Assembly (NCBI GenBank): GCA_964518835.1
Contig: CAZFKU010000001.1
Coordinates: 19,923 to 83,922 of the forward strand
Reading direction: 5' to 3'
Length of the DNA: 64,000 nt
From: an uncultured bacterium
GTDB lineage: Bacteria > Fidelibacterota > Marinisomatia > Marinisomatales > AB-629-J13
Shown here piece by piece: positions 1 through 56,333 of this stretch. How positions within the stretch are numbered: the stretch's first letter is position 1; the number at the start of each line of letters is the position of its first letter. The translations under genes were made by a program, and so were the position numbers. A model generated the notes under the pieces. The model saw nothing but the letters and a program-made list of their open reading frames with translations. It was not told where the DNA came from and did no database searches.

Positions 1-613
1 GTATATGCCGGGAATGAGTCGTAACTGCCAATATCAAAGTGAAAGGTACCATAACTATAGATGCAGTCGCCAGAACAGGGTCATCCAATAGCCATCCGCA
101 AAAACAGGAAAGTAAAAATAAAATGCTGGAGAAAACCCCAATTTTTCTGCGAAATAATGTTATTGTATTATCATCAAGTTCGATGAAATAGAGAAGAAAT
201 ATTCCAAAGAACATAGGTAGATAACCGAGAAAATATCCTAAACCCGATAAAATATCTGTTATTCCCCATCCTAAAATCCAACAGATTAAGAAAAAAATAC
301 ATCGTAAAACCCACTCCGATATAACACCCATTTTATCTTTGTCCAATAAAATGCTGTGATTATTTATTTTTAGTATAATCATTGCAATTATCAGAATAGT
401 CAAAGAGATCATTCCCTCATTCCATCCTGAAAATTCCCAGAATGTATGTCTGTCAACCATTCCTGCTTTTGCTGCCATTCCCGCTGCCAGGATTGTCCAG
501 GGAGCAAACCATGAAATAACCTCAAATTTTTCTATGATAATCAAAGGAGCAAATAGTTTTGAAATCATTCCATACAGGGAAGTCTCTGGTTTAATTAATC
601 TGGCGATGATCAT
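1..613 (-). CDS. polytopic membrane protein (partial; C-terminus lies beyond the window start)
   Basis: ATG at 613-611, 3 nt after the stop of the NSS gene. My translation (MIIARLIKPETSLYGMISKLFAPLIIIEKFEVISWFAPWTILAAGMAAKAGMVDRHTFWEF...) stays open to position 1 and is mostly hydrophobic helices. It is absent from the ORF track because there is no stop in the window. Confidence 0.45.
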   Translation of the reverse strand, partial: MIIARLIKPETSLYGMISKLFAPLIIIEKFEVISWFAPWTILAAGMAAKAGMVDRHTFWEFSGWNEGMISLTILIIAMIILKINNHSILLDKDKMGVISEWVLRCIFFLICWILGWGITDILSGLGYFLGYLPMFFGIFLLYFIELDDNTITLFRRKIGVFSSILFLLSCFCGWLLDDPVLATASIVMVPFTLILAVTTHSRHI

Positions 614-616
614 GGA

Positions 617-1990
617 TTAACCAATTAACGGAGCACCAAAAAATATTTCTATTATCTCATTTAATATGATTAAACCCACAACAAGCGATGCAATTACAAA
701 TAATAATTTTACTGCAGGGACAGAGATTTTTTTTGATGTCATCCCTAAGAAAAATTCCTCTAAAAAGTTTGGAACTCCCCAACGGTTTAAAATGAAGACG
801 GCTGTCAGCATTCCTCCAATGGGTAACATATATTTCGCTGATAGGTAATCCATAAAGTCAAAAAATGTCATTTTAAAAATAAATGCAAAATCAGTGAAAT
901 CTCCCATAGACAACGAACAGAATATCCCCACAAAGGTAATGATAATTCCAAACACAACTGTAGCCCGAGTCCTACTCCACCCTTTTTGATCAATGAAATA
1001 AGCTGTTACAACTTCCAAAATTGAAATTGCAGATGTGAGAGCTGCTAAAAATAATAAAAAGAAAAAGAGAGTACCCCACAATAAACCACCTGCAATTTTA
1101 GGAAAAATGGTTGGTAATACCACAAAAATCAATCCCGCTCCCTGTTGAGGATTAGCACCTACAGAAAACACAGTTGTAAAAATTGCCAAGCCGGCTAAGA
1201 GAGCAATCCCTGTATCAAGAATGACTATCCAAATTGCTGAATTGAGGAGGTTTTGTTCCTTTCTGAGATAGCTTCCGTAGGTGATCATGGTTCCCATTCC
1301 CAGGCTCAGAGTAAAAAAGGAATGTCCCAGAGCCAAAACGATGCTGGAAGCAGTGATGTCCTCAAATTTTGGTTTGAACAGAAAGGAAAATCCGGCACTT
1401 GCATTTGGCAAGGTGATACCTCGAATAACTAAAACAATTAAAATGAAAAATATCATCGGCATCATTACTTTTGTCCATTTTTCAATTCCACCTTTAATCC
1501 CATGTACGATGACCCAAATGGACAATCCCATAAAAATGATGTGCCAGAATAATGGATTCCATGGGTTGGTGATAAAATTATCGAAGACGGCTCCTGATAG
1601 ATCAGGATTTCCCGCTAATTCTGAAAATCCTCCTGTCAATGACAAAAAAGTGTAACGTAAGGTCCATCCTCCTACAACTCCGTAAAATGCCAGAATTACA
1701 AAAGCTGACAAAACCCCAAGCACTCCTACCCATTTCCAATAGGAATTAGGAGCTAACTTTTCAAAAGCGCCTACAGGACTCAATTGAGTTTTTCGACCAA
1801 TTACAATTTCCCCAATGACAATGGGCATTCCCACAATCAGGATACACAGTAAATAAATTAAAGTAAATGCACCCCCACCGTTCTCACCTGCGATATATGG
1901 ATATTTCCAAATATTTCCCAATCCCACTGCTGATCCTGATGCAGCCAAAATAAATCCAAATTTAGATCCCCAATGTTCTCTTTTTTCCAT
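617..1990 (-). CDS. neurotransmitter:sodium symporter (NSS/SNF, SLC6-like) family transporter
   Basis: 457 aa. N-terminal signature WGSKFGFILAASGSAVGLGNIWKYPYIAGENGGGAF is typical of the NSS family. Many hydrophobic helices. Confidence 0.92.
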   Translation of the reverse strand: MEKREHWGSKFGFILAASGSAVGLGNIWKYPYIAGENGGGAFTLIYLLCILIVGMPIVIGEIVIGRKTQLSPVGAFEKLAPNSYWKWVGVLGVLSAFVILAFYGVVGGWTLRYTFLSLTGGFSELAGNPDLSGAVFDNFITNPWNPLFWHIIFMGLSIWVIVHGIKGGIEKWTKVMMPMIFFILIVLVIRGITLPNASAGFSFLFKPKFEDITASSIVLALGHSFFTLSLGMGTMITYGSYLRKEQNLLNSAIWIVILDTGIALLAGLAIFTTVFSVGANPQQGAGLIFVVLPTIFPKIAGGLLWGTLFFFLLFLAALTSAISILEVVTAYFIDQKGWSRTRATVVFGIIITFVGIFCSLSMGDFTDFAFIFKMTFFDFMDYLSAKYMLPIGGMLTAVFILNRWGVPNFLEEFFLGMTSKKISVPAVKLLFVIASLVVGLIILNEIIEIFFGAPLIG

Positions 1991-10854: not shown

Positions 10855-12018
10855 TTATTCGAAATAATTCATGATAATTTGACCAGATCCATTACTCCTC
10901 ACCCAATATCCAAATCCCGGGAAAATGCTTTCAGTCGAAGAATAATTTCCATCAAATTTGAAAATCGTACCGGGAATGATTAAATTTTCGGGGTCTTCAA
11001 TTTCCTCAACATCCAATGAAAATGAAATTCCTGAAATCAGATTCCACCCTTCTGTAAGATTAATAGTCAAAGAATTAATTATAGTTCCACTGATATTTGC
11101 CTGATATGGTGTTCCAAACCTCAGCCAGTATCCGATACCAAGTTGTAAATTTTCTACTAATTCATACACACCATCTTCATTGAAAAAAAACAATGAATTA
11201 TCAATCGTATTTTCAAAAATATCCTGATAGAATGAATTTTCAATTTCAACGGAAATGCCAACCATATTCCAGCCGTCCAGAATGTCCATTGAATAGGAAT
11301 TATCCTGCGAAAAATATTTGGCTCCGATATCACTTACGGTTCCGTCTGGATCCATGGATTCAGGGTCTCCTGAATCAATACAGGGAGAGTCAGGATTATA
11401 ACTGAAATCTAAATCAGTTTGATTGACAAATTGGGGATTCTCAAAAATATTTCCTGTACCTGGATAAGGAACACACGGTTCCCAAATGTCCCCTCAGCCG
11501 GGACAGTTTGACATGTAGGTTTCAGAATTTCCCCACCCATTACAATAAGCCAAATTCACATCCGCATCTAATCCTATAATCGCAAGTCCATAGGTATTGT
11601 CAATCAGGTTGCAGTTCCGAATTGTTGTGAACGTATGTTCTCCAACTTGAATTCCCCACACATCGTTGATAAAGTTGCAATCTATTATTTCATGATTTCC
11701 GTATCCCGAAAAATTCACACCATAATAACCGCCATTTATTATAGAGCATCCCTTAATGACCAATGGAGGGGAACTGGTTTCATCCCCTGACATCCAGATT
11801 CCGGTGCCTCCTTGAAGATCAATCACAGCGCCGTTTCCTTCAAGAAAGACCGAGTAAACTGAAGAACCAAATCCGCCGGTATAGATCACATTGGGATCAA
11901 GAACCATATATTTATCATATCCATTCCCGGGACCTGCATTTTGATATACTTCGTATAAATTTTCACCGATGAGAACATTCAGAGATAAAATTAAACTTAT
12001 TAAGATAAAAATTTTCAT
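10855..12018 (-). CDS. secreted right-handed beta-helix protein with an in-frame TGA (candidate Sec codon or pseudogene) and a truncated shared cassette
   Basis: Track ORFs 11494-12018 and 10855-11355 are in one frame (138 nt apart, with no other stop). The read-through sequence NCPG-TGA-GDIWEPCVPYPGTGNIFENPQFVNQTDLDFSYNPDSPCIDSGDPESMDPDGT matches the beta-helix C-cap of the paralogue at 50140-52836. Signal peptide MKIFILISLILSLNVLIG. It ends after the two WNxVG/GYW repeats and has no T9SS tail. Confidence 0.55.
11462..11493 (-). promoter_or_regulatory. SECIS-like stem-loop directly 3' of the in-frame UGA
   Basis: mRNA is UGA GGGGACAUUUGGGAACCGUGUGUUCCUUAUCC. Upper stem is GGGAAC/GUUCCU (6 bp including one G.U) with loop CGUGU. 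The lower GGG/UCC pairing starts right after the UGA. Confidence 0.35.
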
Positions 12019-44307: not shown

Positions 44308-45091
44308 AAATTATATCTCCGGCATTGTACACTGGACCATCAATGCAAACCAGTGAATAGTGTTCATGGTAGCTGTGCTCTTTTTTGTTGTTATTTTGCC
44401 GTAAAATCACGCAACCCTGGCATATCCCTACTCCACATCCCATATAGCTTTCCACGGCTAATTGAGCCGGAATACTATTCCTTGTGACATAGGACTGTAC
44501 TTCTTTCAACATGGGTTCTGGTCCGCAGGCAAACACTTCCGGTATTTTTCTTTCATTTTCACAGAGTTCCACCAGAGTTATCATAACCGTTCCCTTGGTT
44601 CCGAGTGAACCATCATCTGTTGTTAAATAAATGTGTTTATCCGGTTCATGCGCATGAATATGTTCATCCTTGGTTCTTGCTCCAATGATAAGATATGTGT
44701 TTTCGGTGTTTCCATTAAATTGATTCCACAGGTTCACAATGGGAGCAAGACCTACTCCTCCCCCTACCAAAATGCGTGTGTGGTTGGAATCTAAGTTAAA
44801 AATATTCCCTAAGGGACCCAGTATATTGATTGTTTCCCCAGGTATTTTTTTAGATAAAATTGATGTACCTGTACCAAATATTTTATATATAATAGACATG
44901 GTGTTCTCATTACATCCGGCAATACTCATGGGACGGCGTAATGGATATTCCCACCCTGATTCAATCTGAATTTGAATAAATTGTCCTACTCCGTTATATT
45001 TGGAGGAAATTTCAGGAGCATAAAATTCCATTTTCCAGATTCCGGTGGCGATCTCTCTATTTTTTGTAATGGTTACATTTTCAAAAATCAT
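44300..45091 (-). CDS. pyrK: dihydroorotate dehydrogenase electron-transfer subunit
   Basis: 263 aa. FAD/NAD-binding fold (RRPMSIAG, LVGGGVGLAP, ACGPEPM) and a C-terminal Cys cluster CGVGICQGC...C for a [2Fe-2S] centre. Confidence 0.88.
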   Translation of the reverse strand: MIFENVTITKNREIATGIWKMEFYAPEISSKYNGVGQFIQIQIESGWEYPLRRPMSIAGCNENTMSIIYKIFGTGTSILSKKIPGETINILGPLGNIFNLDSNHTRILVGGGVGLAPIVNLWNQFNGNTENTYLIIGARTKDEHIHAHEPDKHIYLTTDDGSLGTKGTVMITLVELCENERKIPEVFACGPEPMLKEVQSYVTRNSIPAQLAVESYMGCGVGICQGCVILRQNNNKKEHSYHEHYSLVCIDGPVYNAGDIIFD

Positions 45092-46973
45092 CTGGATAAG
45101 GTGACTTCTTTTTTTTCAGCGAATCACTTTTCAGGGTTGATGCCCTAGGCATTGAAATTTGAACTGAATCAATCTTAACAGGCTCTGTTATCAGTGAATC
45201 TGGGACGGATATTTGTGTAGAATCCAAAGTCTCTGTAGAATCTGGTGGAGCCAATAGTGATTTTATCTGGTTCATTCTGGGTTTTGATAGGGTTGCTTGT
45301 TCGCTGTCAGGAAAATATGATTGCACCCAGGTGTAATATTTTAAGGCACTGTCAGGATTAATGAGAGAGTAATCGTATTGATATCCCAGAAAATAACCGG
45401 ATTTCAGGGCAAAATCACTGGAAGTATCTGATTTCACAACCAAACGCAATGTATCCAAGGCATTTCCCTGATGATCTGAGTACCATAAATATTCTGCTGA
45501 TAAAAATAATTTTTCGGATTCGGATTGTTTTTTACCCCATCCTAAATTGTTTCTTACAGCTTCAGCAAATTCAGTGTCGGGAAAATCTAATGTTAAAATA
45601 CTTCCCATTGAATCTGCAGCAATTGAATCCCCTTTTGAATTGTGAAGAAAATAGAGCATATACAACGCTTTTGGATAAAGCTCATGGTTGGAAAATTCTT
45701 TTATAAAAATATTCAAATGAACCACTGCTGAATCTGGTTTTTTAAATCGAAATGCTTCCAACTCAGATAAAAGTATTAAATTTTTCGCCGCTTCTTCATT
45801 TTTTAAAATTTGTACATGTTTTGTCCTCTCCTCGTCCCTATCCCCTATTGTCAAAGTATCGGTATCCTGCATGACGGTATCATCAAAGGTAAAAACAAGT
45901 TTTTCTGCAGAAATATATTGGTCAATATATTTGATCATTTCTTGTGATTCTTTTACTACCGGTGATTTACGGTTTTCCTTATTAGATTTTTCAAAATATT
46001 CTTTGGCTACATTCAGGTTCCAGGAATCCTTAATGGATTTTCGTCCCAGCATAAAATAAGCTTCCGCTGCTACTTCTGTGGAGGAATAGTCTTTAACGAT
46101 TGATTTAAGTCTCTCAACAGCCGCATCACTTTCATTTTTCAGATCGTAAATTCGAACCAATTCCAGTTCCAGCGCTCCAAATAATTCCCTGAATTCCTCA
46201 TCGATGAGGAGGCTTTTTATTTTTTTCACTGCTGTGTCATAATTTCCTGTCAGTCTATGGATTTTAGCCGTTTGTAAATGGGCATCCAGTTTCAGTTTTT
46301 TTACGAGGGAATTTTTAATCACCTGCTCATAAGCATTCAGGGCTCTTTCATATTCTTCCCTGCTAAATGCCAATTCAGATAATCTTTGATAAATACGCCC
46401 TTTTTCCTTGCGGTCAACTGTTTTATCCGCTGCGGTTTCTAGATGACCCAATGCAGTTTCAATATCTTTCAATTCAATATAAATATCTGCTAAATACAGA
46501 TGAATCAACGTTGATGTGATAGAAATGTGTTCTTCATTCAGCAAGTTACTCAATTGATCAATTGCCGTCTGTATTTTCCCCTTTTTCCATTTTATAAGCG
46601 CTATCCAGAATTTCGCCTGCTGTTGGAAATCAAGAACTTCTGAAGTTACCAATTGCTTCATTTTAGATTCAGCAGAATTATATTCTTCTTTGTGGTAATG
46701 AGCCTGACCGGATAACAACAGAGCGGGAAAAACATAGTCGCTTTCGGGATATTTTTCTAAAACAAGGTCACATTTTTCGATTACATTGGTATAAGCAGTC
46801 TGGGCATTAGCTGGTAAAGACCTATCTTCATTTTCAAGCCGAATCTTTTCCGCATCCCTAAAGTATTTTTTCGCATTGTAAAATGTATTATAATAAACGC
46901 AGGAAGTAGTGACGGATAAAAGTGCAATAATTAAAGTTTGCCACACTGCAATGTGTTTAAAAAAGATTCTCAT
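45081..46973 (-). CDS. tetratricopeptide repeat protein
   Basis: 630 aa: an N-terminal anchor and many TPR-like A..Y..A/L helical repeats. No catalytic motif. Confidence 0.7.
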   Translation of the reverse strand: MRIFFKHIAVWQTLIIALLSVTTSCVYYNTFYNAKKYFRDAEKIRLENEDRSLPANAQTAYTNVIEKCDLVLEKYPESDYVFPALLLSGQAHYHKEEYNSAESKMKQLVTSEVLDFQQQAKFWIALIKWKKGKIQTAIDQLSNLLNEEHISITSTLIHLYLADIYIELKDIETALGHLETAADKTVDRKEKGRIYQRLSELAFSREEYERALNAYEQVIKNSLVKKLKLDAHLQTAKIHRLTGNYDTAVKKIKSLLIDEEFRELFGALELELVRIYDLKNESDAAVERLKSIVKDYSSTEVAAEAYFMLGRKSIKDSWNLNVAKEYFEKSNKENRKSPVVKESQEMIKYIDQYISAEKLVFTFDDTVMQDTDTLTIGDRDEERTKHVQILKNEEAAKNLILLSELEAFRFKKPDSAVVHLNIFIKEFSNHELYPKALYMLYFLHNSKGDSIAADSMGSILTLDFPDTEFAEAVRNNLGWGKKQSESEKLFLSAEYLWYSDHQGNALDTLRLVVKSDTSSDFALKSGYFLGYQYDYSLINPDSALKYYTWVQSYFPDSEQATLSKPRMNQIKSLLAPPDSTETLDSTQISVPDSLITEPVKIDSVQISMPRASTLKSDSLKKKKSPYPDDF

Positions 46974-47639: not shown

Positions 47640-50072
47640 TTATTTTATGAGCATCAATTTATCAACTTTAGAAAAATTCCCTGATTGCAAATGTATAAAA
47701 TACACCCCGCTGGCAAACTTTTTTGCATTCCATTGAACACTGTGATTTCCGGAGGAAAGTTTTTCATTTACTAGGGTTTCAACCAATCGTCCCTGAATAT
47801 CATAAATATGTAGAGACGTTGCATACACCGTCTTTACATCAGGAATTGCGAACCGGATCGTTGAAGAAGGATTGAAAGGATTTGGATGGGCTGGAAAAAG
47901 GGTGAACTCTGTGGGTGTTTGGGGAGAGATGGATTTTCTTAAAATCAGTTCAGTCACATTTCCTGTAATTTCAATTACTCCGGTTTCAGTCAAAGTGAAT
48001 TCTTCGCCGGTTTTTTCATGTACCAACATCCAAACAGGAGTACCTTGAGAAGATTTAGAACCTTCGAAAGGAATTATATTATAAGATAGGAACAAATCTT
48101 GGCCAGAACTCATTACTTCAATCACACATTCTTCTATTGTACAGAGTTTGGTGTCTCCCGAAAAACGAATATCCGTTCCTTCAACTGGTGGTTTTGGCGG
48201 TAGAGAAAAACTCAATTTTTCTGTTTTCGATAAAATGGAATTTCCAAAATAAAGTGTTTTACCATTGATGGAAATATTATTCAAATCTTCTTGCTTTTTT
48301 TCCAAATATTGGAAATGTGAAACATTTTCATTCCATCCAATAGATAATGATATTTCACCACTACCAAATGAACGTATCCAGTACCCATATCCCGGTGCCA
48401 GAGAATTTGACTCAATGTAACCGGATGCATCATATCCAAATAATGTATTTGGGACGATTAGCGAATCAGGATCGTAAACCCAACTGACAGGAACTTCACC
48501 GCTGGGTCCGGCAATTAAGTTCCATCCTTCCGACAAAGAAATTGTTATTTCATTAATATTATTTCCTGACACAGTAGTTGAATCACTGTTGTCAAACCTG
48601 AGCCAATATCCCGATCCGGGAATGAATATTTCTGTGAGGTAATAACTGTCAGTAAATCCGTATAGGGTTTCTTCCACACTGGATGGGAATACAGATATCT
48701 GGGACGGATCATCCAAATTGACGGAAAGCCCAACCAGATTCCAGCCAGATATCAGAGTCACATTGTATTCCGTCCCTCCCCCACTTATTTCAAATGAGGT
48801 CATAGATTCATCATAATCCATACCATCATTAAAATTAGCAGAAACTTCATAAGACCCTGAACCCAAGGAAACCTCAATTTCAAATAATGATCCATCACTG
48901 TATGAGTGATCATAAGAAATCATATTGCCTGATAATATTTCACTCCCATTTTGAGAAATTGAATATTCCGGGGATAGGGGGAAATGATTGTCATCATCAG
49001 TGTATTCTGTTTGCAGATGTACTAAAGTGATTCCCGCTGAATCTCCAACAATTTCATACGTTAAGGGTGATAATTGCGGCGGGGTATTTACACCAATTTC
49101 ATAGGATTGAAAATCCGGATTCAAAAAAGCCGGATTGGTCTGATCTCCGATAGTCATATCAGTAAAACTTGCCGCAACTGTAAGACCGGTTATAATCACC
49201 GCTTCAAATTCATTGGGCCATTCTCCAAAATCCGGATCGTTAAAAATATCATCCATATTCACTGCCATATAAAGATTATTACCGTTAATCGAATATTCAA
49301 TGCTTGCAATAAATTCAGGGAAATCTGCTCCCAATTGAAACTTCCACACTCCGGGATAAAGTAGTCCAAATCCTCCATCTCCGTATCCAATACCGTACAA
49401 ACTTGAATCAGGATCTTCAGGATTTAATAATCCAACAACATACAGGTACCATGGTCCAAAAAAATCACCTGTGGGGAATCCTCCCCCTGCATTTTGCAGG
49501 TGAACATGGATCCTATCATCGCTTATTGCAACACTCACATTCTGAATATCCAAACTCTGGTTTCCTGTAGCTTCGTCACCAATTTCATCTTCACAGGCTT
49601 CTACATACCACGATGCAGGTACGTTATCATTTTCATTATAGGGACTTTGAGTAATGGTCATATCCTGATCATCAAACGTAATATCTGCCTGAAATCCGGT
49701 GTGTAAATAGCCCGATGATGTAGTTTGAGTTTCAGCTTCAAAGGTATTTTCATATCCGGGAGTCCCCAAATAATAGGCATCTGAAACTGTGTAATTATTT
49801 CCATCTCCATTAAAAATAAATGCTTCTATTGGTCCTGCATTTAAAATAGTATCTGGGATGTCCGCATGATGGTACATGACACTATTTGGTGCAGGTGCAG
49901 TGGTTGAAACACCCAATAATTCTGCAAAATCACGGTTTTGTTGAAGGAAATTTAATGGAGGTAATGTCACCTGCCGTGCATCCAATGGAATTCGCAAATT
50001 TTGGGTAGAATTATTTTCCTTTGCAAAAAGAAAAATTGATAGAGTTGAAATAAAGAAAAACAACTTTTTCAT
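47640..50072 (-). CDS. secreted protein of unknown function with shared cassette and T9SS sorting domain
   Basis: 810 aa. Signal peptide MKKLFFFISTLSIFLFA, an N-terminal region of about 434 aa with no motif I recognise, cassette at 47640-48770, HPNPFNP...LMLIK tail. Confidence 0.75.
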   Translation of the reverse strand: MKKLFFFISTLSIFLFAKENNSTQNLRIPLDARQVTLPPLNFLQQNRDFAELLGVSTTAPAPNSVMYHHADIPDTILNAGPIEAFIFNGDGNNYTVSDAYYLGTPGYENTFEAETQTTSSGYLHTGFQADITFDDQDMTITQSPYNENDNVPASWYVEACEDEIGDEATGNQSLDIQNVSVAISDDRIHVHLQNAGGGFPTGDFFGPWYLYVVGLLNPEDPDSSLYGIGYGDGGFGLLYPGVWKFQLGADFPEFIASIEYSINGNNLYMAVNMDDIFNDPDFGEWPNEFEAVIITGLTVAASFTDMTIGDQTNPAFLNPDFQSYEIGVNTPPQLSPLTYEIVGDSAGITLVHLQTEYTDDDNHFPLSPEYSISQNGSEILSGNMISYDHSYSDGSLFEIEVSLGSGSYEVSANFNDGMDYDESMTSFEISGGGTEYNVTLISGWNLVGLSVNLDDPSQISVFPSSVEETLYGFTDSYYLTEIFIPGSGYWLRFDNSDSTTVSGNNINEITISLSEGWNLIAGPSGEVPVSWVYDPDSLIVPNTLFGYDASGYIESNSLAPGYGYWIRSFGSGEISLSIGWNENVSHFQYLEKKQEDLNNISINGKTLYFGNSILSKTEKLSFSLPPKPPVEGTDIRFSGDTKLCTIEECVIEVMSSGQDLFLSYNIIPFEGSKSSQGTPVWMLVHEKTGEEFTLTETGVIEITGNVTELILRKSISPQTPTEFTLFPAHPNPFNPSSTIRFAIPDVKTVYATSLHIYDIQGRLVETLVNEKLSSGNHSVQWNAKKFASGVYFIHLQSGNFSKVDKLMLIK

Positions 50073-50139
50073 TTTAAGTCTCCAGGTATTTTTTAAATAA
50101 ATGTTATAAATAATTGAGAGAAATCTAACTCAGCCTACA

Positions 50140-52836
50140 TTATTTTAAAAGAACGCATTTACCGCTGAGTGTTTTTCCTCCTGCACTAACTTTGTACAGG
50201 TAAATTCCAGATGAAACAATCTCATGGTTTGAATCCGTTCCGTTCCACTCTACTTGATGAATTCCCTCCGATTGGTGCCCGTTTACCAATGTTATTATTT
50301 TTTCCCCTTTTAAATTGATGATATCAATTTGGACAGTTTCTTTTCCATTTACATAATATTGAATGGAGGTTTTATTATTAAACGGATTAGGAAAATTTTG
50401 GATCAGGGTGAATTCCTCAGGAATTTCTTTTGATTTCAGCAATGTGAAAAACTGTGATGTGTTTGGTAAATCCACAGTTTCTCCCTCATTTACTCTAATA
50501 AGATTCCCTGATTCATCCTTCAAAATAATACTCTCATTTCTACCATTTGAATGAAAAGTGACATTAAGTTTTCCACTATTATTTAATACATGGATTGTCT
50601 GATTCTCCATGGGGATTTTCCAATCTCCACTGTAACGTATATCAAATTCCATTCCGCTGAATCGGGGAGGTAAGCTGAAGGAATAATTTAATTTTTCATC
50701 CTCAGGAATTTTTAAATAAATTTCTGCTGACAATTCTCCGTTCGAAAACACAAGGTTCTCCTCGGGAAATTGTATTGTCTGTTCAACTATTTCTTTCATT
50801 AACCAAGAATCGGTTGAAAGAAAAATATTTCCATCATGCATAACTCTTGCCCAATAACCTCTTCCCGGAATGATGTAATCTGCATTCACATACGTTCCTT
50901 CAAATCCATAAACTGTTCCCGGATAAACTATGCTTGAACTGTACAATGCATTTACAGGAATGAGTGTAGAGATTCCGGAAATTAGATTCCATCCACCCAC
51001 AACAGGAATATTAATTTCAGAGAGGTGAATTCCTTCAAAAACGACTTCTGTGTTTTCAGTGAATCTTAATAAATATCCCACTCCTTCGGTTAAATATTCT
51101 TCAGAAATATACATTCCATCAAAACTGTACAATGATCCAGAATAAATTGAATTAAATAAAATTTGATAATGGGAATCTTCTACTGACAAAGGTAATCCTG
51201 CCATATTCCAGCCTTCATTGTAATTGACCGGAATTGGAAAATCACCAGCTTCATGATGATGATAAAAAGCACCCATGTCCAATCGTGTTCCATCAGGGTC
51301 TCTGTCATCAGGATCAATTTCCCAGGTGAATCCGTCTCCATCCAAATCAGGGTGACCTGTGTCAATGCAGGGGGAGGGAATTTCTAGGTTGTAGTTGTTA
51401 AAATAAGGGTCACTGAAATTTGGGTCTTCAAAATTATTCCCATCTCCCCAGTTTATTTCCAAATCATATTCATTATTGATATCTTCTTCATTAAAATCCA
51501 AATTATTATATAAAAATGTTATTTGGCTGGATGGATGTAAATTATAGTAAGTTAATGTTTCTTCCAATAGATGTTCACGAATGATTGAATTAATTATTTT
51601 TATGTCAAAGTATCCTCTAATGTGAAGGAAAGATGAACTATTATTAATTATTGTAGAATTAACAACTTCTACACTCGAATCCCATAAATATATTGCACCT
51701 CCATAACCTGACTCATTTTCATATATAAGGCAATTGGATAATGAGAAATTATTTCCCGGTAAAGCTCTTATTGCTCCGCCTCCGTATTCAGCATAATTAT
51801 TTGAAAATATAGAATTTGAAATATCTGGATGGGAATTATCATGTAGAGTGATTCCACCTCCATCTGCCATAGAAATATTATTCAAAATGATTACATTTCT
51901 GATTATTGGACTTGCTTCAAAACAATAAATTCCTCCTCCGTGATTGGTTAAATTATCATATATAATTAAATGTTCTAATAAAGGAGAAGAATATTCACAA
52001 TGAATTCCTCCACCATGGGTTGCAAAACCGTTGGTAACTGTAAAACCAATTAAAATTGCATTTAAATTTTCATTATTGTTAAAGGTAACACCAGATCCAG
52101 CTTCATCTCCATCAATGATAGTTTGCGAAATATAGGAAGTATCCTGTGTTGTTAAAAATAGTGAACCGACGATAATATTTTTCCCGTTAAAATTAATATT
52201 TTCAACATAAGTTCCGGGACTTACCAAAACCGTATCTCCATCAAAAGCGGCATCAATCCCCGCTTGGATGGTGGGATAATCATGAGGAACCGTAATGAGA
52301 TTGTACTGGGGTGGGTCTCTCAATTCCAGAATTAAGTTTTTGATGTAGGTGAAATCTTCCGGGCTATTCGGGTCATAAGGAGTGATATTAAAAGATGTAT
52401 CAATTTCTCCCATAGTATTTAAAAAGAAAACAGTTCGTTGAACGGCTTCCCAATCTGTCCAAACAGGATATCCTTCCGCTTCATGATCCTGAGTCCAGGG
52501 AAGAATTCTACCATTGATCATCTGGTCAAGGTATTCAGAGTACTGGTCTTTTCCCACCCCAATGATGTGGACATCCTCAATACCGTCTTCCAGAAAGGAA
52601 AGATAAATTTCGTTCAGGAAACCGAACCGGCTTCGGCAGACTCCTCAGGATTCGTGACCGAAAAATATGACACAGACTTCCCCTATGTAAAGAGATGGTC
52701 CGATTATGTTGCCATAGGTTTCTGAATTTGGATTTACATCTTCAAGAAAAAATGGATCTTGGGAAAATGAAAGAGCACCAAAAAAAAGTGGAATCCAGAT
52801 AAAATATTTCTTCATGGCGATATGAAGTTTATCCAC
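50140..52836 (-). CDS. secreted redoxin (TlpA-like thioredoxin fold, candidate selenocysteine UxxC) + right-handed beta-helix protein with shared cassette and T9SS sorting domain
   Basis: Track ORFs 52645-52836 and 50140-52557 are in frame (87 nt apart) and separated only by the TGA at 52645-52647. The likely start is MKKYFIWIPLFFGALSFSQ at 52815. The redoxin motif is FFGHES-TGA-GVCR. Beta-helix repeats (GGGI..., NNISMADGGG), the SPCIDTGHP cap, cassette at 50140-51240, FPNPFNN...CVLLK tail. Confidence 0.6.
52617..52644 (-). promoter_or_regulatory. SECIS-like stem-loop directly 3' of the in-frame UGA
   Basis: mRNA is UGA GGAGUCUGCCGAAGCCGGUUCGGUUUCC. Lower stem is GGA/UCC. Upper stem is GCCGAA/UUCGGU (6 bp including one G.U) with loop GCCGG. 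Confidence 0.45.
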
Positions 52837-52888: not shown

Positions 52889-53701
52889 TCATCTTTTTTT
52901 TATCCGTTTTCTGCTCAAATTCACAACACCAAATTTTCGCACCACAAAATTACCAAATTCCGATGAGAAAACATTTAAGGCAAGCAGTGGTTTCATGGGT
53001 CCTTTATTCACAATAATCTCTCCTTTCCCCGTTTTGATTGCTTTCAATACTGCATCTGCAACATCCTGCGGAGCGGAAGTCCCAAGTAATTTTGGAGCTT
53101 TCTGTCCACCATCAAAAAACATTCCAGCTGAATCAATATATCCCGGCATAATTGTGGAAACTGAAACATTTGTATCGTGTAATTCCTGCCGTAAACCATC
53201 TCCCCACTTGATCAACCCCGCTTTGGATGCGGAATAGATTGAATTGTAGGCAACTCCTTTTCTACCGGCTAATGAAGCAATGTTAATGATATTTCCTGAT
53301 TCTCTTTTCAGCATTTTAGGTAAAAGCAATCGGGTAAGTTCCATGGGAGCCAATAGATTCACATTTATTATAGATTGAATTGTTTTGAGGCAATTATCAG
53401 AATAATTACTGTATTTTTCAATTCCGGCATTATTCACCAGAATATCAATTCCATCCGCAAAAACTGATTCTACCATTTGAACTAAATCGCTAATATTTTG
53501 TGGTTCATTCAAATCAAATGAAATTGTTTTGATTTTTCCACCCGAATCGTGAACTTCCTTTTCAACCTTTTTCAATCCATTTTCGGAACGGGCAACTCCA
53601 ACGACCTCTGCTCCTTCCATTGCCAGAGTTTGCACAATATAAGTTCCAATTCCTCTGGAGGAACCGGTGACTAATGCAGTTTTCCCATCTAACTTTTTCA
53701 T
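52889..53701 (-). CDS. short-chain dehydrogenase/reductase (SDR) family oxidoreductase
   Basis: Start MKKLDGKTALVTGSSRGIG at 53701 (track start 53773). Motifs NNAG and YSASKAGL. Confidence 0.88.
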   Translation of the reverse strand: MKKLDGKTALVTGSSRGIGTYIVQTLAMEGAEVVGVARSENGLKKVEKEVHDSGGKIKTISFDLNEPQNISDLVQMVESVFADGIDILVNNAGIEKYSNYSDNCLKTIQSIINVNLLAPMELTRLLLPKMLKRESGNIINIASLAGRKGVAYNSIYSASKAGLIKWGDGLRQELHDTNVSVSTIMPGYIDSAGMFFDGGQKAPKLLGTSAPQDVADAVLKAIKTGKGEIIVNKGPMKPLLALNVFSSEFGNFVVRKFGVVNLSRKRIKKR

Positions 53702-53723
53702 ATTTTTCTCCAGATAATTTAGA

Positions 53724-56333
53724 TTAACGAATGATTGGAAAATTGAGACGAATATAATAGTTCCATTTTCCATTCTGACTTAAAACCGCTCCTGCTACTG
53801 GACTAAAACGAAGAAATCCCATGGAAATACTGGTTTCTAAAAAAGATTCCGCACCGATCGAAGCAAGGTATTTTCCCTGTTCTCCAATAAGGTAGTCCAC
53901 AAATATTTTTCCATTTATATCTTCAAAATACAGATTTACTTTCCAGAACCCTTTTCTCAATTTCATGAGTTGAAAGGTATAACTGGGAGTAATTCCTATA
54001 GCATAAGAGGATTTTATATTTCCTGTACCACGTGTTGTAAAATTTATTTTATACATTGATTGCCATTGGAATCTTGTATCCATCCTAAAATAACCATAAT
54101 TATTTTTCTGGGTTGAGGATATCCTGAATGATATCCCGTAATTGTTCCCGGGGTCTTCACTTGAAAAATAAATGGGAAGTCCCATTGAAATCAGAACCTT
54201 TCTTAAAGGATATCCATAATATAAAATTATCCCCGGAGTCAAAACCCTGTCAGTAAATTCCGCTCCACCAAAATAGGAGTTTCCGCTCAGAGTAACCGAA
54301 GGTTTCCCTGGTTTTGAGGTTACAATTAACGGATATGAGCCGGTAAAAGAAAAAACATCCGTGTAATCTGTATATCCATGAAAATAAAAAGGTGACCATT
54401 TGTTAATGGATAATCCTGTAGTCATTGAAACTGGTTTGTCTTCAATTGGAAAATTAACTAACGAGGAATATCTAAAATGAGTTAAAACATCAGATCCCTT
54501 GAATAAAAATCCGGGAGTCATCCTGAACTGATTGAAATAAGGTGTTCGTAAATAGGGTTTAAACAATTTATTATAGACAGAATAATCCACTTTTTTCTTT
54601 GAAACAGGATGTGAATTTATGATTGTCTCTTCAGTCTTATTTTTTGGGATATCAACTTGTTTAAATTCCGAATTGCTGACAAAAATATCCTCTCCAGTTT
54701 CTGTTAAACTGATGAAATATAACGAACTATCTATCACGGTTCCACGTTGGGAAAATCCTGTATCTGTCAATTGATAAAAATCTCCACTCTTTAAATCGTA
54801 ACCAAAAATGGAAATCATTTTGTTATAATTAGCTGTGTAGATTAACATTTCTTTGTAAATACTTAATTCAGTTTCTGTCCAATTGTTATCAGTTATATGT
54901 TTAAGACTCATGTCATCTCGATTCAATTCATATATATTAAAATGTTGATTTAAGCCTTTCCCGGATAGAAAAAATTGCCCTCCTTTTGAGATCATTTCAG
55001 ATATTTGAATCGGAATATCACCTAAATAATTTGATTCTTCATAATTAAAACTCCACAGTTGTGAGCCAAATTTGTTTCTCATATCCTTTGAATAGATAAT
55101 TTCTCCCTCTGGATAAATACAAAAGGAGCGGAAATTATCTGTAAAAATCTCTTTTCGTTTTTCACTATTGATATCCAATTCATAAAGAACAGAGTTTGTG
55201 CCAAAACTACCGTTTGTAGTGTTTGCGAATCCTTTTCCCGATTCTGTTGTGCTGAAGTAAATTTTCTCATTCACTATCCTCAGTGGAGCATTGATCCACT
55301 GTTTTAATTCACAGATTGTTTTTTCAGTTTTACTAACCGGGTCGAATTTGACCAATCGGAAAAATGGAACATCCTTTTTAGAATAAATCATTTTCATATA
55401 GTAAATATTTTTTTTCCAAGCTATTACATATTTTTTATACCAGCCGTCAAATGTTAACCTCTCTCCTGCCCAATCCCACTCCCGGTAATGTTCTCTCATT
55501 TCATCTTTCCAAGTGCTGTAAAGATCATTTGAAACTCCTCCATATATTTTTTTCATGGATCTGTCAATAACAAAATTTGGAAATGTTGTACCAAAGATTG
55601 GAGCCCACCAATAGGAACTTATTTCAGTAATGAATTCTTTAATTGAACTTTTACCGTAAGAGTTTGACAAATAATTGAGGAAAGAACCACCAATATAATA
55701 TTCGTCATTATGAGAATAATAGGAATTTGGTGAATGAGTTAATTCGTTGATATTTGGCAGGATATCATATTTTGTCTGAGTGGCGATCATTGCTTCCGTC
55801 CATCCACTATTTAACATTCCTTCATTTGCAAACAAATTTGATTCGGTTGTCATGGCAATCCCTTCCACTGACCAATCCGGTAAAAAACCGTTTGGTTGGA
55901 GAAATGGACCGAAAATGGAAACAGATTTTCCTGCAAAACCGGTAGAACCGTTTATGTGCGATGCATGAGAAAATTCATGCAGTCCTGTTGACCTGATTTG
56001 ATTTGGTGTAAAATTCCCTAGAAAATCGGATGAATACGGTGAAACATATTGATGAATAACAGATTCTACAGGGGAAAACCAGGCGCTGGATATAAATCCT
56101 CCCTCTTCCAGAATATATGTTGTTTTTCCAGGGTCATTTCCTTGAGTCTCAACGACCTTTTCCCGATACATCTCCAAATTGGTTATGAGATGATTTGCAT
56201 CCCAGTCAAGCTCCTGAGGAAAATACACAGAAAAATGATCGCTTTCATAAACCCACCATTCCGTATTTAATTGTGCAAATCCTTGTGCAAGAATTACGAT
56301 GAAAAATAGAAATGTTCGAAATATTTTATGCAA
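53724..56333 (-). CDS. secreted HExxH-motif protein with beta-propeller-like middle and beta-rich C-terminal region
   Basis: 869 aa. Signal peptide MHKIFRTFLFFIVILAQGFA. HEFSH at 55965-55979. The middle has TolB/PD40-like repeated segments. The C-terminal ~300 aa has an alternating, beta-barrel-like pattern. Confidence 0.6.
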   Translation of the reverse strand: MHKIFRTFLFFIVILAQGFAQLNTEWWVYESDHFSVYFPQELDWDANHLITNLEMYREKVVETQGNDPGKTTYILEEGGFISSAWFSPVESVIHQYVSPYSSDFLGNFTPNQIRSTGLHEFSHASHINGSTGFAGKSVSIFGPFLQPNGFLPDWSVEGIAMTTESNLFANEGMLNSGWTEAMIATQTKYDILPNINELTHSPNSYYSHNDEYYIGGSFLNYLSNSYGKSSIKEFITEISSYWWAPIFGTTFPNFVIDRSMKKIYGGVSNDLYSTWKDEMREHYREWDWAGERLTFDGWYKKYVIAWKKNIYYMKMIYSKKDVPFFRLVKFDPVSKTEKTICELKQWINAPLRIVNEKIYFSTTESGKGFANTTNGSFGTNSVLYELDINSEKRKEIFTDNFRSFCIYPEGEIIYSKDMRNKFGSQLWSFNYEESNYLGDIPIQISEMISKGGQFFLSGKGLNQHFNIYELNRDDMSLKHITDNNWTETELSIYKEMLIYTANYNKMISIFGYDLKSGDFYQLTDTGFSQRGTVIDSSLYFISLTETGEDIFVSNSEFKQVDIPKNKTEETIINSHPVSKKKVDYSVYNKLFKPYLRTPYFNQFRMTPGFLFKGSDVLTHFRYSSLVNFPIEDKPVSMTTGLSINKWSPFYFHGYTDYTDVFSFTGSYPLIVTSKPGKPSVTLSGNSYFGGAEFTDRVLTPGIILYYGYPLRKVLISMGLPIYFSSEDPGNNYGISFRISSTQKNNYGYFRMDTRFQWQSMYKINFTTRGTGNIKSSYAIGITPSYTFQLMKLRKGFWKVNLYFEDINGKIFVDYLIGEQGKYLASIGAESFLETSISMGFLRFSPVAGAVLSQNGKWNYYIRLNFPIIR

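Follow-up and report, generated by a model that had tools for sequence, protein, structure and literature searches.

The in-frame TGA codon at 52647-52645 of the analyzed DNA, a stretch of 64,000 nucleotides referred to here as the window, is very probably a real and evolutionarily conserved selenocysteine (Sec) codon, and the two open reading frames on either side of it would form one gene for a secreted 891-residue selenoprotein of Marinimicrobia. ORF 52836-52645 and ORF 52557-50140 lie on the minus strand in a common frame, as had been described from the sequence alone, and the TGA is the sole stop between them. It is followed by 87 nt (29 codons) and then by the GTG used by the ORF finder. 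When the codon is read through, the peptide is ...GEVCVIFFGHES-[TGA]-GVCRSRFGFLNEIYLSFLEDGIEDVHIIGVGKDQ..., with the motif FFGHES-U-GVC-RSRFG around the TGA. The first-pass annotation had placed a selenocysteine at the first Cys position of a CxxC motif, and this placement was supported by the TGA kept in 25 homologous loci and by the existence of a Cys homologue.

The ATG at 52815 (MKKYF...) is the likely start of the gene, as homologues have an equivalent MKK... Met. From this shared start the product would comprise 891 residues instead of the 898 annotated before. In a profile scan the full read-through protein matched both NF053656 and TIGR04183. The features of the gene are collected in Table 1. 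The beta-helix and the cassette shared with other ORFs, both of which had been named as parts of the product, were recovered by a Pfam match above the cutoff and by BLASTP, respectively; the C-terminal module has 30-36% identity over ~360 residues to seven other window ORFs.

Table 1. Features of the putative selenoprotein gene in window coordinates
Feature	Position	Strand	Basis or details
Whole selenoprotein gene (predicted)	50140..52815	-	ATG 52815, Sec-UGA 52647-52645, stop TAA 50142-50140; 891 residues including Sec57
Predicted N-terminal signal peptide, MKKYFIWIPLFFGALSFS/QD	52762..52815	-	Predicted from sequence: basic n-region, hydrophobic core, small-x-small site
Thioredoxin-fold redoxin domain, 'TUGYCR / Prx-like 2' family, residues 21-164	52324..52755	-	NF053656.1
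Probable selenocysteine codon UGA	52645..52647	-	TGA column in homologues; aligns with TGC of CGIC homologue L029
Bacterial SECIS-like hairpin GAAGCC[GGUUC]GGUUUC	52618..52634	-	RNAalifold consensus, covariation, synonymous constraint
Right-handed beta-helix region, residues 228-389	51649..52134	-	Pfam PF13229 Beta_helix, E 2.5e-10, 40.6 bits vs 25.9
C-terminal module, ~residues 530-807, common to other large window ORFs	50395..51228	-	BLASTP
T9SS type A C-terminal sorting domain, residues 808-891	50143..50394	-	TIGR04183, PF18962, FlgD_ig

Conservation of the TGA codon

All 21 matches among species-representative genomes carried TGA at the same column, i.e., Sec and never Cys. By title, 16 of these genomes belong to Marinimicrobia/Neomarinimicrobiota, four are listed as "uncultured bacterium" and one as Winogradskyella; protein identity among them was 51-85%. 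The TGA column was also kept in L001 and L002, which are close homologues, and in the more distant L027 and L028, which gives 25 homologous loci with TGA from independent assemblies. Carriers of the gene include the MAGs UBA2986 (DEAI01) and ERR599051_bin.43 (CAJWIT01). An alignment at this column had been proposed as a check on the codon, and TGA was identified in 23 of 24 close loci in addition to L027 and L028. The only Cys form that could be found, and none of this kind was found in Marinimicrobia, was P0111/L029, in which CGIC (TGC) aligned to U-G-V-C so that its first Cys paired with U (hhalign probability 99.8%, E 3e-30). This CGIC homologue and the distant TGA members came from a profile search of a representative library, the matches of which were dominated by the T9SS tail because tail columns were part of the profile.

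The homologues did not end at the TGA. Protein sequence was kept on both sides of it, with H34 and E35 invariant before and C40, R43, F44, G45, L47 and N48 invariant after the codon, so that the coding conservation expected downstream was indeed present. Leu+10, Asn+11 and Cys+3 varied synonymously, as translated sequence should. The SUGVCR of the window corresponds to [SYN]-U-[GAS]-x-C-[RQT] in its relatives. Many database homologues are cut to begin at MDVHVIGVGKDQ or contain a 'W' that stems from a table-4 gene call of the TGA. In one relative, L003, the redox residues are gone (SYDS) and a later in-frame stop is present.

A conserved hairpin downstream of the UGA

Among the homologues a hairpin, GAAGCC[GGUUC]GGUUUC, lying 16 nt after the UGA was conserved. 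Counted from the U of UGA, its stem is 14-19/25-30, and the apical loop lies at 52628-52624. In the RNAalifold consensus of the homologue alignment this stem was paired in 97.8% of cells, compensatory changes were observed at pairs 16-28 and 14-30, and the covariation score was reached by none of 500 shuffles. At pair 17-27 the main group has G-C or G-U, and L027 and L028 have C-G. Synonymous sites were frozen at Ser+5 (AGC in 19 and AGT in 2 sequences, no other codon), Arg+6 (CGG in 22 of 23) and Phe+7 (TTC in 22 of 23); in contrast, the near-invariant (96%) Arg+46 used all six codons. Independent compensatory events in the stem are few because the hairpin overlaps the conserved peptide CRSRFGF.

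The fold of the window sequence was no better than that of its shuffles (z = 0.43; 135 of 200 shuffles folded at least as well), therefore the single-sequence fold proves nothing by itself and the evidence comes from the comparison of homologues. In the fdhF SECIS the loop contains G23/U24; the loop G-U of the window hairpin is found at +21/+22. The published bSECIS model (PMC13188914) describes an apical loop of 3-9 nt, a stem of 4-16 bp, a G in the first two loop positions, a location 16-37 nt after the UGA and an MFE <= -7.5 kcal/mol. The conserved hairpin has a loop of 3-5 nt (GGUUC or GUU) with G first, a stem of 6-7 bp (14-19/25-30, plus 20-24), a spacing of 16-17 nt and, in the window, an MFE of -12.1 kcal/mol, and thus the window hairpin agrees with all four criteria of this model. 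An MFE <= -7.5 kcal/mol was obtained for 20 of 23 homologues. Like the E. coli fdhF-type bSECIS (PMC13188914), it is small and located within the coding region immediately 3' of the UGA, its apical loop begins with G followed by G or U, and its spacing and energy lie within the model; however, its stem is shorter (6-7 bp), it has no evident bulged U and its spacing of 16 nt is the smallest that the model allows. By analogy, the conserved hairpin would be a bacterial SECIS that may recruit SelB.

Family, fold and export

The redoxin domain matched the NCBIfam model NF053656 with 133.6 bits (curated cutoff 100 bits; E 4.8e-39; profile positions 3-145 of 146), in agreement with the earlier assignment to a thioredoxin-fold redoxin. 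The model, redoxin_TUGYCR, is described as "TUGYCR motif thioredoxin fold (seleno)protein"; the window sequence S-U-G-V-C-R keeps U, G, C and R of the name-giving motif, and T and Y are replaced. The redox center of the domain is U57-G-V-C60.

The family had already been predicted by Zhang and Gladyshev (2008; PMC2398784) as the 'Prx-like 2' selenoproteins of marine metagenomes, described there as having 'low similarity to pfam04592'. Members in its GOS Dataset S1 contain FFGHEYUGACRSRFGFLN and IIGVGKD, and one of these members, JCVI_READ_1093016149783, is 52% identical to the window protein across 235 residues without gaps. 'Prx-like 2' is equivalent to NF053656 and agrees with the window protein in the domain, the position of UxxC, the marine origin and the flanking motifs FFGHE[SY]-U-GxC-RSRFGFLN, IIGVGKD and YPVW; in the data set (PMC2398784), one GOS read has the beta-helix fusion, and other reads end in a T9SS-type tail. 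Nothing essential is different, except that the local motif of the window is SUGVCR and not TUGYCR. The novelty implied by the first-pass annotation is therefore lost: the family has been known since 2008, including members with the beta-helix fusion and the T9SS-type tail, and has a curated NCBI model, so that the finding is correct but ordinary.

The similarity to pfam04592 was traced further. The Cys homologue P0111 reached Pfam SelP_N (26.8 bits vs gathering score 23.2), and no SelP_N (PF04592) match was obtained for the window domain and 19 close relatives at E <= 10. The human SELENOP N-terminus, as an approximate query sequence, aligned weakly by hhalign (E 0.0037, probability 8.9%) with the U and C columns matched. 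The Selenoprotein P N-terminal domain is likewise extracellular and has a UxxC center in a thioredoxin-like domain, but the window protein lacks a Sec-rich C-terminal tail. The relation to SelP_N appears to be distant and transitive only, via P0111.

Profile comparison with PDB sequences gave ResA and 2ls5 as best matches, the first Cys of their CxxC being aligned with U (E 0.002-0.02; ResA 0.007-0.017). The top Foldseek matches were DipZ (DipZ-C), DsbE, ResA and GPx (E 5e-5 to 1e-3, TM about 0.5), and the AF2 model of homologue P0001, with a mean pLDDT of only 56.6, has a strand at 45-52 and a helix at 56-74 right after residue 55, the Sec column. The low-confidence model, Foldseek and the PDB profile are each weak and mutually consistent. 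Pfam models of the thioredoxin clan stayed below the gathering score in the window (Thioredoxin_8 19.9 vs 27, AhpC-TSA 17.4 vs 26) and were matched by 18 and 14 of 19 relatives, respectively, at E <= 10, with a best E of ~1e-5. With ResA/TlpA/DsbE (CcmG) the window domain would share the thioredoxin fold, the CxxC center at the start of helix 1 and extracytoplasmic work; it would differ by Sec in place of the first Cys, and it differs by the lack of a W before the center, where HES-U and not W-C is found. Moreover, ResA/TlpA/DsbE are anchored in the inner membrane, whereas the window protein would be displayed by the T9SS. For a T9SS-displayed protein without an inner-membrane anchor, the usual electron supply by DsbD/CcdA would therefore be out of reach.

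The T9SS tail, which had been annotated before, was significant in two models, TIGR04183 Por_Secre_tail (36.7 bits vs cutoff 23) and Pfam PF18962 (28.4 vs 27), and FlgD_ig scored 35.4 vs 27; surface export of the selenoprotein is therefore plausible. All full-length homologues have N-termini of a form equivalent to the predicted signal peptide MKKYFIWIPLFFGALSFS/QD. T9SS tails above cutoff were also identified in at least four other window ORFs, and seven share the tail-bearing C-terminal module (BLASTP). The only match to T9SS machinery in the window was ORF 45081-46973, which resembles PorW/SprE (E 1.8e-30) below the cutoff (106 vs 250). Periplasmic formate dehydrogenase and [NiFeSe] hydrogenase are extracytoplasmic selenoproteins of bacteria. 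The 2008 survey (PMC2398784) also lists selenoproteins resembling DsbA, DsbG and secreted proteases, and a selenoprotein outside the cytoplasm is thus not without precedent in bacteria. In the literature, no account was found of this protein as a Marinimicrobia/SAR406 selenoprotein or of a combination of T9SS and selenocysteine.

Alternative readings and Sec decoding in the lineage

If the TGA were a true stop, the region would be a split or decaying gene, or would encode a 56-residue peptide and a separate protein starting from GTG 52557. The ORF finder and public gene callers do split the gene at the TGA, and L003 shows that decay occurs in the family. However, the 29 codons from TGA to GTG belong to the best-conserved part of the domain and hold the six invariant residues C40 to N48, their Leu+10, Asn+11 and Cys+3 vary in the manner of translated sequence, the GTG sits within the invariant GVGKD motif, and the downstream part would be without a signal peptide yet carry a T9SS tail. 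As the same single TGA is found in 25 independently assembled loci, with genome matches of 51-85% identity, a true stop deserves hardly any credence. These loci come from different projects, and Sanger reads from GOS show the TGA as well; given the comparative data, the idea that a TGC or TGT was misread or misassembled as TGA can be regarded as effectively refuted.

Read-through of the UGA without Sec, either by another code (table 4 or 25) or by a near-cognate tRNA inserting Trp or Cys, would be in line with the W that public pipelines put at this codon in P0001, P0095 and P0118, and with the Sec machinery not being seen in the window or the fetched loci. It is nevertheless very improbable. 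The code is standard, since among the 43 long ORFs of the window 13 others terminate with TGA (25 with TAA, 4 with TAG), as had been noted for TGA as a genuine stop. The 'W' is a product of table-4 gene models chosen for short contigs; with table 11, these loci 'do not translate to query'. In addition, a conserved hairpin fitting the bSECIS model (PMC13188914) follows the UGA, the codon occupies the catalytic first position of CxxC, for which a Cys homologue exists, and NCBI curates the family as selenoprotein. With Sec insertion accepted, the functional SECIS might still be the hairpin drawn in the first-pass annotation, GCCGAA[GCCGG]UUCGGU with a lower GGA/UCC stem, which had been compared to that of fdhF. 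A hairpin 3' of the TGA does exist as claimed, and the drawn one is part of the MFE fold of the window sequence (-12.1 kcal/mol) and, as a bare hairpin, is as stable as the shifted one (-6.9 vs -6.6); the conserved register, however, lies 3 nt further downstream. In the drawn stem, 11-16/22-27, pair 13-25 in the middle cannot form in 17 of 23 homologues, as the usual codon of Arg+4 is AGA; compensatory changes were not observed at any pair, and the shuffle control was flat. The mean energy was -1.4 vs -6.4 kcal/mol for the shifted hairpin, which was better in 21 of 23 sequences, and the drawn loop starts 13 nt after the UGA, closer than the 16-37 nt that the bSECIS model (PMC13188914) allows. 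The drawn hairpin was rejected as the conserved element, and it is unlikely to be the functional SECIS.

No tRNA-Sec, selA, selB or selD was identified in the 64-kb window or the fetched homologue loci. Searches of the window with Rfam (gathering thresholds) and ARAGORN, and of 24 loci with ARAGORN, gave no tRNA-Sec and no known RNA family, and NCBIfam scans of 18 other window ORFs, partly picked for SelA/SelB/SelD-like sizes, gave no Sec machinery. In the literature an 'orphan' SelD is listed for three SAR406 single-cell genomes, which is the sole link of the phylum to selenium use. If Sec is inserted, as the conserved codon and hairpin suggest, selA, selB, selC and selD would be expected in the source genome.

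In the proposed mechanism, the UGA at 52647-52645 would be read as selenocysteine when the hairpin at 52634-52618, with its apical loop starting GGU, recruits SelB and Sec-tRNA(Sec) to the ribosome paused at the codon, by analogy with E. coli fdhF. The U-G-V-C center would be located at the start of helix 1, where its selenol would replace the attacking Cys of ResA/TlpA-type CxxC proteins and could catalyze thiol/selenol-disulfide exchange or peroxide reduction. The N-terminal signal peptide would direct the protein across the inner membrane and the T9SS type A sorting domain across the outer membrane, after which the selenoprotein is probably tethered to the cell surface like other type A cargo. 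Both the catalytic reaction and the final location are what we infer from these features.

A second conserved selenoprotein candidate lies at 12018-10855 of the window. This right-handed beta-helix protein contains the motif NCPG-U-G; its gene, too, has a conserved TGA and a covarying hairpin, in which G21-U22 is spaced as in the first gene, and of the C-terminal module it has the initial portion alone (residues 457-667 of the 50140..52815 protein; BLASTP). In a metagenome scan TGA was found in 40 of 40 loci, although one of the two patterns had Cys at the Sec position and should favor Cys forms. Neither NCBIfam nor the 2026 catalogue of prokaryotic selenoproteins includes the NCPG-U-G family, and it did not occur in the examined parts of the GOS 2008 lists. 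A second gene with a conserved TGA and a covarying hairpin argues that the lineage decodes UGA with a SECIS. That the window holds two secreted selenoproteins, the second with its own SECIS hairpin and of an undescribed family, is a tentative proposal that may well turn out otherwise.

Gene callers cut the gene at 50140..52815 in two or translate its TGA as Trp, and correction restores a predicted surface protein of ~890 residues in an abundant, uncultured ocean lineage, the Marinimicrobia. Biologically this adds little, as both the family and its Sec codon were published in 2008 and an NCBI model exists. Modest additions are the assignment of the family to Marinimicrobia/Neomarinimicrobiota and the identification of its tail as a T9SS sorting domain, which makes its members T9SS cargo and raises the question of which electron donor or acceptor serves a selenol center beyond the outer membrane. 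The candidate at 12018-10855 may be the more useful lead. If the window does encode two secreted selenoproteins, one of them from an undescribed family, SAR406/Marinimicrobia would put Sec chemistry outside the cytoplasm as a lineage-wide trait.

Reading frame and conservation of the in-frame TGA

Two minus-strand ORFs share one frame, and the only stop between them is a TGA followed by 87 nt. Read through, the peptide is ...VCVIFFGHES-[TGA]-GVCRSRFGFLNEIYLSFLEDGIEDVHIIGVGKDQ..., and both frame and peptide match the window sequence as the first-pass annotation described them; its main interpretation, a selenocysteine (Sec) codon within a redoxin domain, is correct. The product more likely comprises 891 residues than the 898 given there, because homologues start at a Met equivalent to the ATG of the gene (MKKYF...). 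As had been stated, TGA is an ordinary stop in the source genome and is the stop codon of 13 other ORFs among the 43 long ones of the window. The gene is adjoined by an SDR gene and another T9SS cargo protein. On the homologous contig L002 an SDR gene is located upstream as well, with two other genes in between, so that synteny is partial.

Coordinates of the features (window positions unless a locus is named)
Feature	Position	Strand	Remark
Sec-redoxin gene, ATG to stop	52815-50140	minus	
ORF before the TGA	52836-52645	minus	
ORF after the TGA	52557-50140	minus	
Sec-redoxin TGA	52647-52645	minus	Sec57
Conserved Sec-redoxin hairpin	52634-52618	minus	+14 to +30
SDR-family oxidoreductase gene	52889-53773		directly upstream of Sec-redoxin gene
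SDR gene on L002	1210-2013		
L003 locus	548-1100		Ser at Sec position
Eight large ORFs	12029-32602 and 47640-52815	minus	586-1633 aa
Candidate 2, ORF before the TGA	12018-11494	minus	
Candidate 2, ORF after the TGA	11355-10855	minus	
Candidate 2 TGA	11496-11494	minus	
Candidate 2 hairpin	11467-11483	minus	+14 to +30

Searching proteins with the N-terminal part of the read-through product yielded 15 relatives, most of which start at MDVHVIGVGKDQ and correspond to gene calls restarting after the stop; two were full length with a Trp ('W') at the Sec column and one had a Ser there. This 'W' is a TGA in the DNA that was translated by a table-4 gene model. Indeed, the DNA of locus L001 reads HEN-TGA-GSCRARFG and that of L002 HES-TGA-GTCRSRFG. 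Scanning GTDB at one genome per species recovered 21 loci with 51-85% protein identity to the window protein, titled as 16 Marinimicrobia/Neomarinimicrobiota MAGs, four "uncultured bacterium" and one Winogradskyella. The alignment of homologues proposed in the first-pass annotation showed TGA at the same column in all 21, as well as in L001, L002 and the far more distant members L027 and L028. H34 and E35 before the TGA and C40, R43, F44, G45, L47 and N48 after it are invariant. The sole locus without TGA, L003, has S-Y-D-S, with Ser (TCA) replacing Sec and Ser replacing the partner Cys; its domain is interrupted further on by an in-frame stop (DY*YLINL), and a change of Arg+6 from CGG to CAG weakens the hairpin. 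Judged by these sequence features, L003 is probably a decaying copy.

The family is multi-copy within genomes, since two Marinimicrobia MAGs, UBA2986 (L005, L024) and ERR599051_bin.43 (L010, L013), each carry two diverged copies on different contigs, all with TGA. The copy in the 'Winogradskyella sp.' MAG (L006, CAXRJK010000089.1) shares 81% identity with the window protein and hardly differs from the Marinimicrobia locus L005; its label probably reflects wrong binning or labelling rather than a Flavobacteriia homologue.

In public protein collections, members of this family and of a second, putative selenoprotein family (candidate 2, below) are cut at the TGA or carry 'W' at the Sec codon (proteins P0001, P0002, P0027-P0034, P0072, P0094, P0095, P0098, P0106, P0115, P0117, P0118 and others; loci L001, L025-L028 and L070), and such loci fail to translate to their protein under table 11. 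The 'W' arose because gene callers, working on contigs that were short and AT-rich, opted for a table-4 model. These calls are a systematic annotation artefact in which Sec sites are masked by a plausible-looking Trp.

The hairpin following the UGA

The hairpin proposed as SECIS in the first-pass annotation exists and is the minimum-free-energy (MFE) fold of the window's own sequence. This fold was no better than that of shuffled sequences (z = 0.43), and therefore the single sequence decides nothing. In an RNA alignment of 23 loci, each covering the UGA and the following 45 nt, with positions counted from the U of UGA, RNAalifold identified one hairpin at 14-20/24-30, which in the window has the form GAAGCC[GGUUC]GGUUUC.

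The two hairpin registers compared in the RNA alignment
Property	Conserved hairpin (14-19/25-30)	First-pass hairpin (11-16/22-27)
Standard pairs formed (cells)	97.8%	87%
Compensatory changes	two loci with G-C for A16-U28, one with A-U for G14-C30	none
Shuffles reaching covariation score	0/500	500/500 (flat control)
Broken pairs	17-27 (2 loci), 19-25 (1 locus)	13-25, the middle pair (17/23 loci)
Mean hairpin energy (kcal/mol)	-6.4	-1.4

Displacing the 3' side of the conserved stem by 1-3 columns lowered pairing to 27-71%. Pair 17-27 is C-G in the distant L027 and L028, compared with G-C or G-U elsewhere. The two hairpins are equally stable in the window itself, because Arg+4 happens to be CGA. 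The published bSECIS model (PMC13188914) describes a loop of 3-9 nt, a stem of 4-16 bp, a G in the first two loop positions, a spacing of 16-37 nt and an MFE of at most -7.5 kcal/mol; the conserved hairpin agrees with it, its spacing of 16 nt being the lower limit. The first-pass register falls outside this model, as its loop would begin 13 nt after the UGA, and it was rejected because of the broken middle pair, the missing compensatory changes and its lower stability in 21 of the 23 sequences. A conserved, covarying SECIS-like hairpin is thus present, 3 nt away from where it had been drawn.

Because the hairpin overlaps a conserved peptide, codon usage is the stronger argument for it. Ser+5 is encoded by AGC (19) or AGT (2) and never by TCN, Arg+6 is CGG and Phe+7 is TTC in 22/23 each, and Gly+8 is restricted to GGY. 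In contrast, all six codons occur at Arg+46, which is near-invariant (96%), and four each at the invariant Gly+29 and Gly+31. Conservation within the domain is among the highest in the 29-codon stretch from the TGA to the GTG chosen by the ORF finder; synonymous variation occurs there at RNA-unpaired sites (Leu+10 five codons, Asn+11 and Cys+3 two each).

Domain identity and predicted surface-protein architecture

Pfam matches of the redoxin domain to Thioredoxin_8 and AhpC-TSA were sub-threshold. A profile of 19 read-through domains matched ResA and the related chain 2ls5 in the PDB (E 0.002-0.02), with the Sec column aligned on the first Cys of CxxC. The low-confidence AlphaFold model of the homologue P0001 (pLDDT 56.6) has a strand followed by a helix beginning directly after the Sec column, and Foldseek matched it to DipZ-C, DsbE, ResA and glutathione peroxidases. 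A Cys form, P0111, was obtained from a representative-library search and gives a Sec/Cys pair; its centre is CGIC, with TGC at the Sec position, and its contig has a G+C content of 66%. P0111 aligns with the whole window domain (hhalign probability 99.8%, E 3e-30) and by itself passes Pfam SelP_N (26.8 vs 23.2 bits). At the sequence level, the decisive match for domain identity is NCBIfam NF053656.1, 'TUGYCR motif thioredoxin fold (seleno)protein' (133.6 bits, cutoff 100, E 4.8e-39, residues 21-164). Protein P0078 (612 aa), from a G+C-rich organism, has at least four tandem copies of the domain with Asp or Thr at the Sec position and the second Cys retained (GRATD-T-A-C-R); at the protein level it is a branch of this fold with neither Sec nor CxxC.

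The family is already known, so the novelty suggested earlier does not stand: besides having an NCBIfam model, it was listed as 'Prx-like 2' by Zhang and Gladyshev (2008, PMC2398784). The entries of their Dataset S1 include ...DICIVFFGHEYUGACRSRFGFLN...IIGVGKD..., and some members there are fused to the same beta-helix region, while others end in NFPNPFNP... tails. The 'Prx-like 2' read JCVI_READ_1093016149783 is 52% identical to the window protein over 235 residues without gaps, extending into the beta-helix part.

The redoxin domain is followed by a right-handed beta-helix (Pfam, E 2.5e-10), a module of ~280 residues and a T9SS type A sorting domain (TIGR04183 36.7 vs cutoff 23; PF18962 28.4 vs 27). 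With a predicted N-terminal signal peptide and this sorting domain, export would proceed via the Sec translocon and the T9SS; a PorW/SprE-like ORF in the window scored under its cutoff. The last ~360 residues are common to seven other large window ORFs (30-36% identity), so that the selenoprotein is one version of a shared surface-protein chassis, with the redoxin as its head domain. The eight ORFs, whose ~360-residue C-terminal module ends in the sorting domain and whose N-terminal heads differ (e.g., agmatine-deiminase-like, Sec-redoxin), look like a surface-protein family built on it; candidate 2 has only the first part of the module, without the tail. Relatives join this redoxin head to Fib_succ_major, to dockerin or to nothing but the T9SS tail.

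Proposed Sec decoding and a second candidate gene

No selA, selB, selD or tRNA-Sec was found in the 64-kb window or the fetched loci; an 'orphan SelD' is mentioned for three SAR406 single-cell genomes in PMC5029168. In the proposed mechanism, the GGU-loop hairpin would recruit SelB with Sec-tRNA(Sec), Sec57 would be the attacking residue of the U-G-V-C redox centre with C60 resolving, and the substrates would be disulfides or peroxides outside the cell.

Candidate 2 consists of two ORFs in the same frame across a TGA (...YMSNCPG-[TGA]-GDIWEPC...), with a predicted signal peptide and a right-handed beta-helix/NosD-like region. Its database relatives end at the TGA or show 'W', and TGA was confirmed in the DNA of L025 and L026. 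All 40 motif-matching rows (37 metagenome-scan loci, L025, L026 and the window) have TGA, even though one search pattern of the scan assumed Cys at the Sec position and should favour Cys forms; L070, a variant with adjacent C-U, has TGA likewise. A hairpin follows its UGA at the distance seen in the Sec-redoxin gene, with 93.5% of cells paired. At pair 18-26 of this hairpin, 11 sequences have U-A, 5 have A-U and 1 has G-C, both sides of pairs 17-27 and 20-24 change too, and G21 and U22 in the loop are invariant. Candidate 2 had no NCBIfam match and was absent from the 2026 selenoprotein catalogue and from those parts of the GOS 2008 supplements (PMC2398784) that the comparison covered. It may represent an undescribed selenoprotein family and is worth separate study. 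As a second gene in the window with a conserved TGA and a covarying hairpin, it provides independent support for Sec decoding in the source organism.
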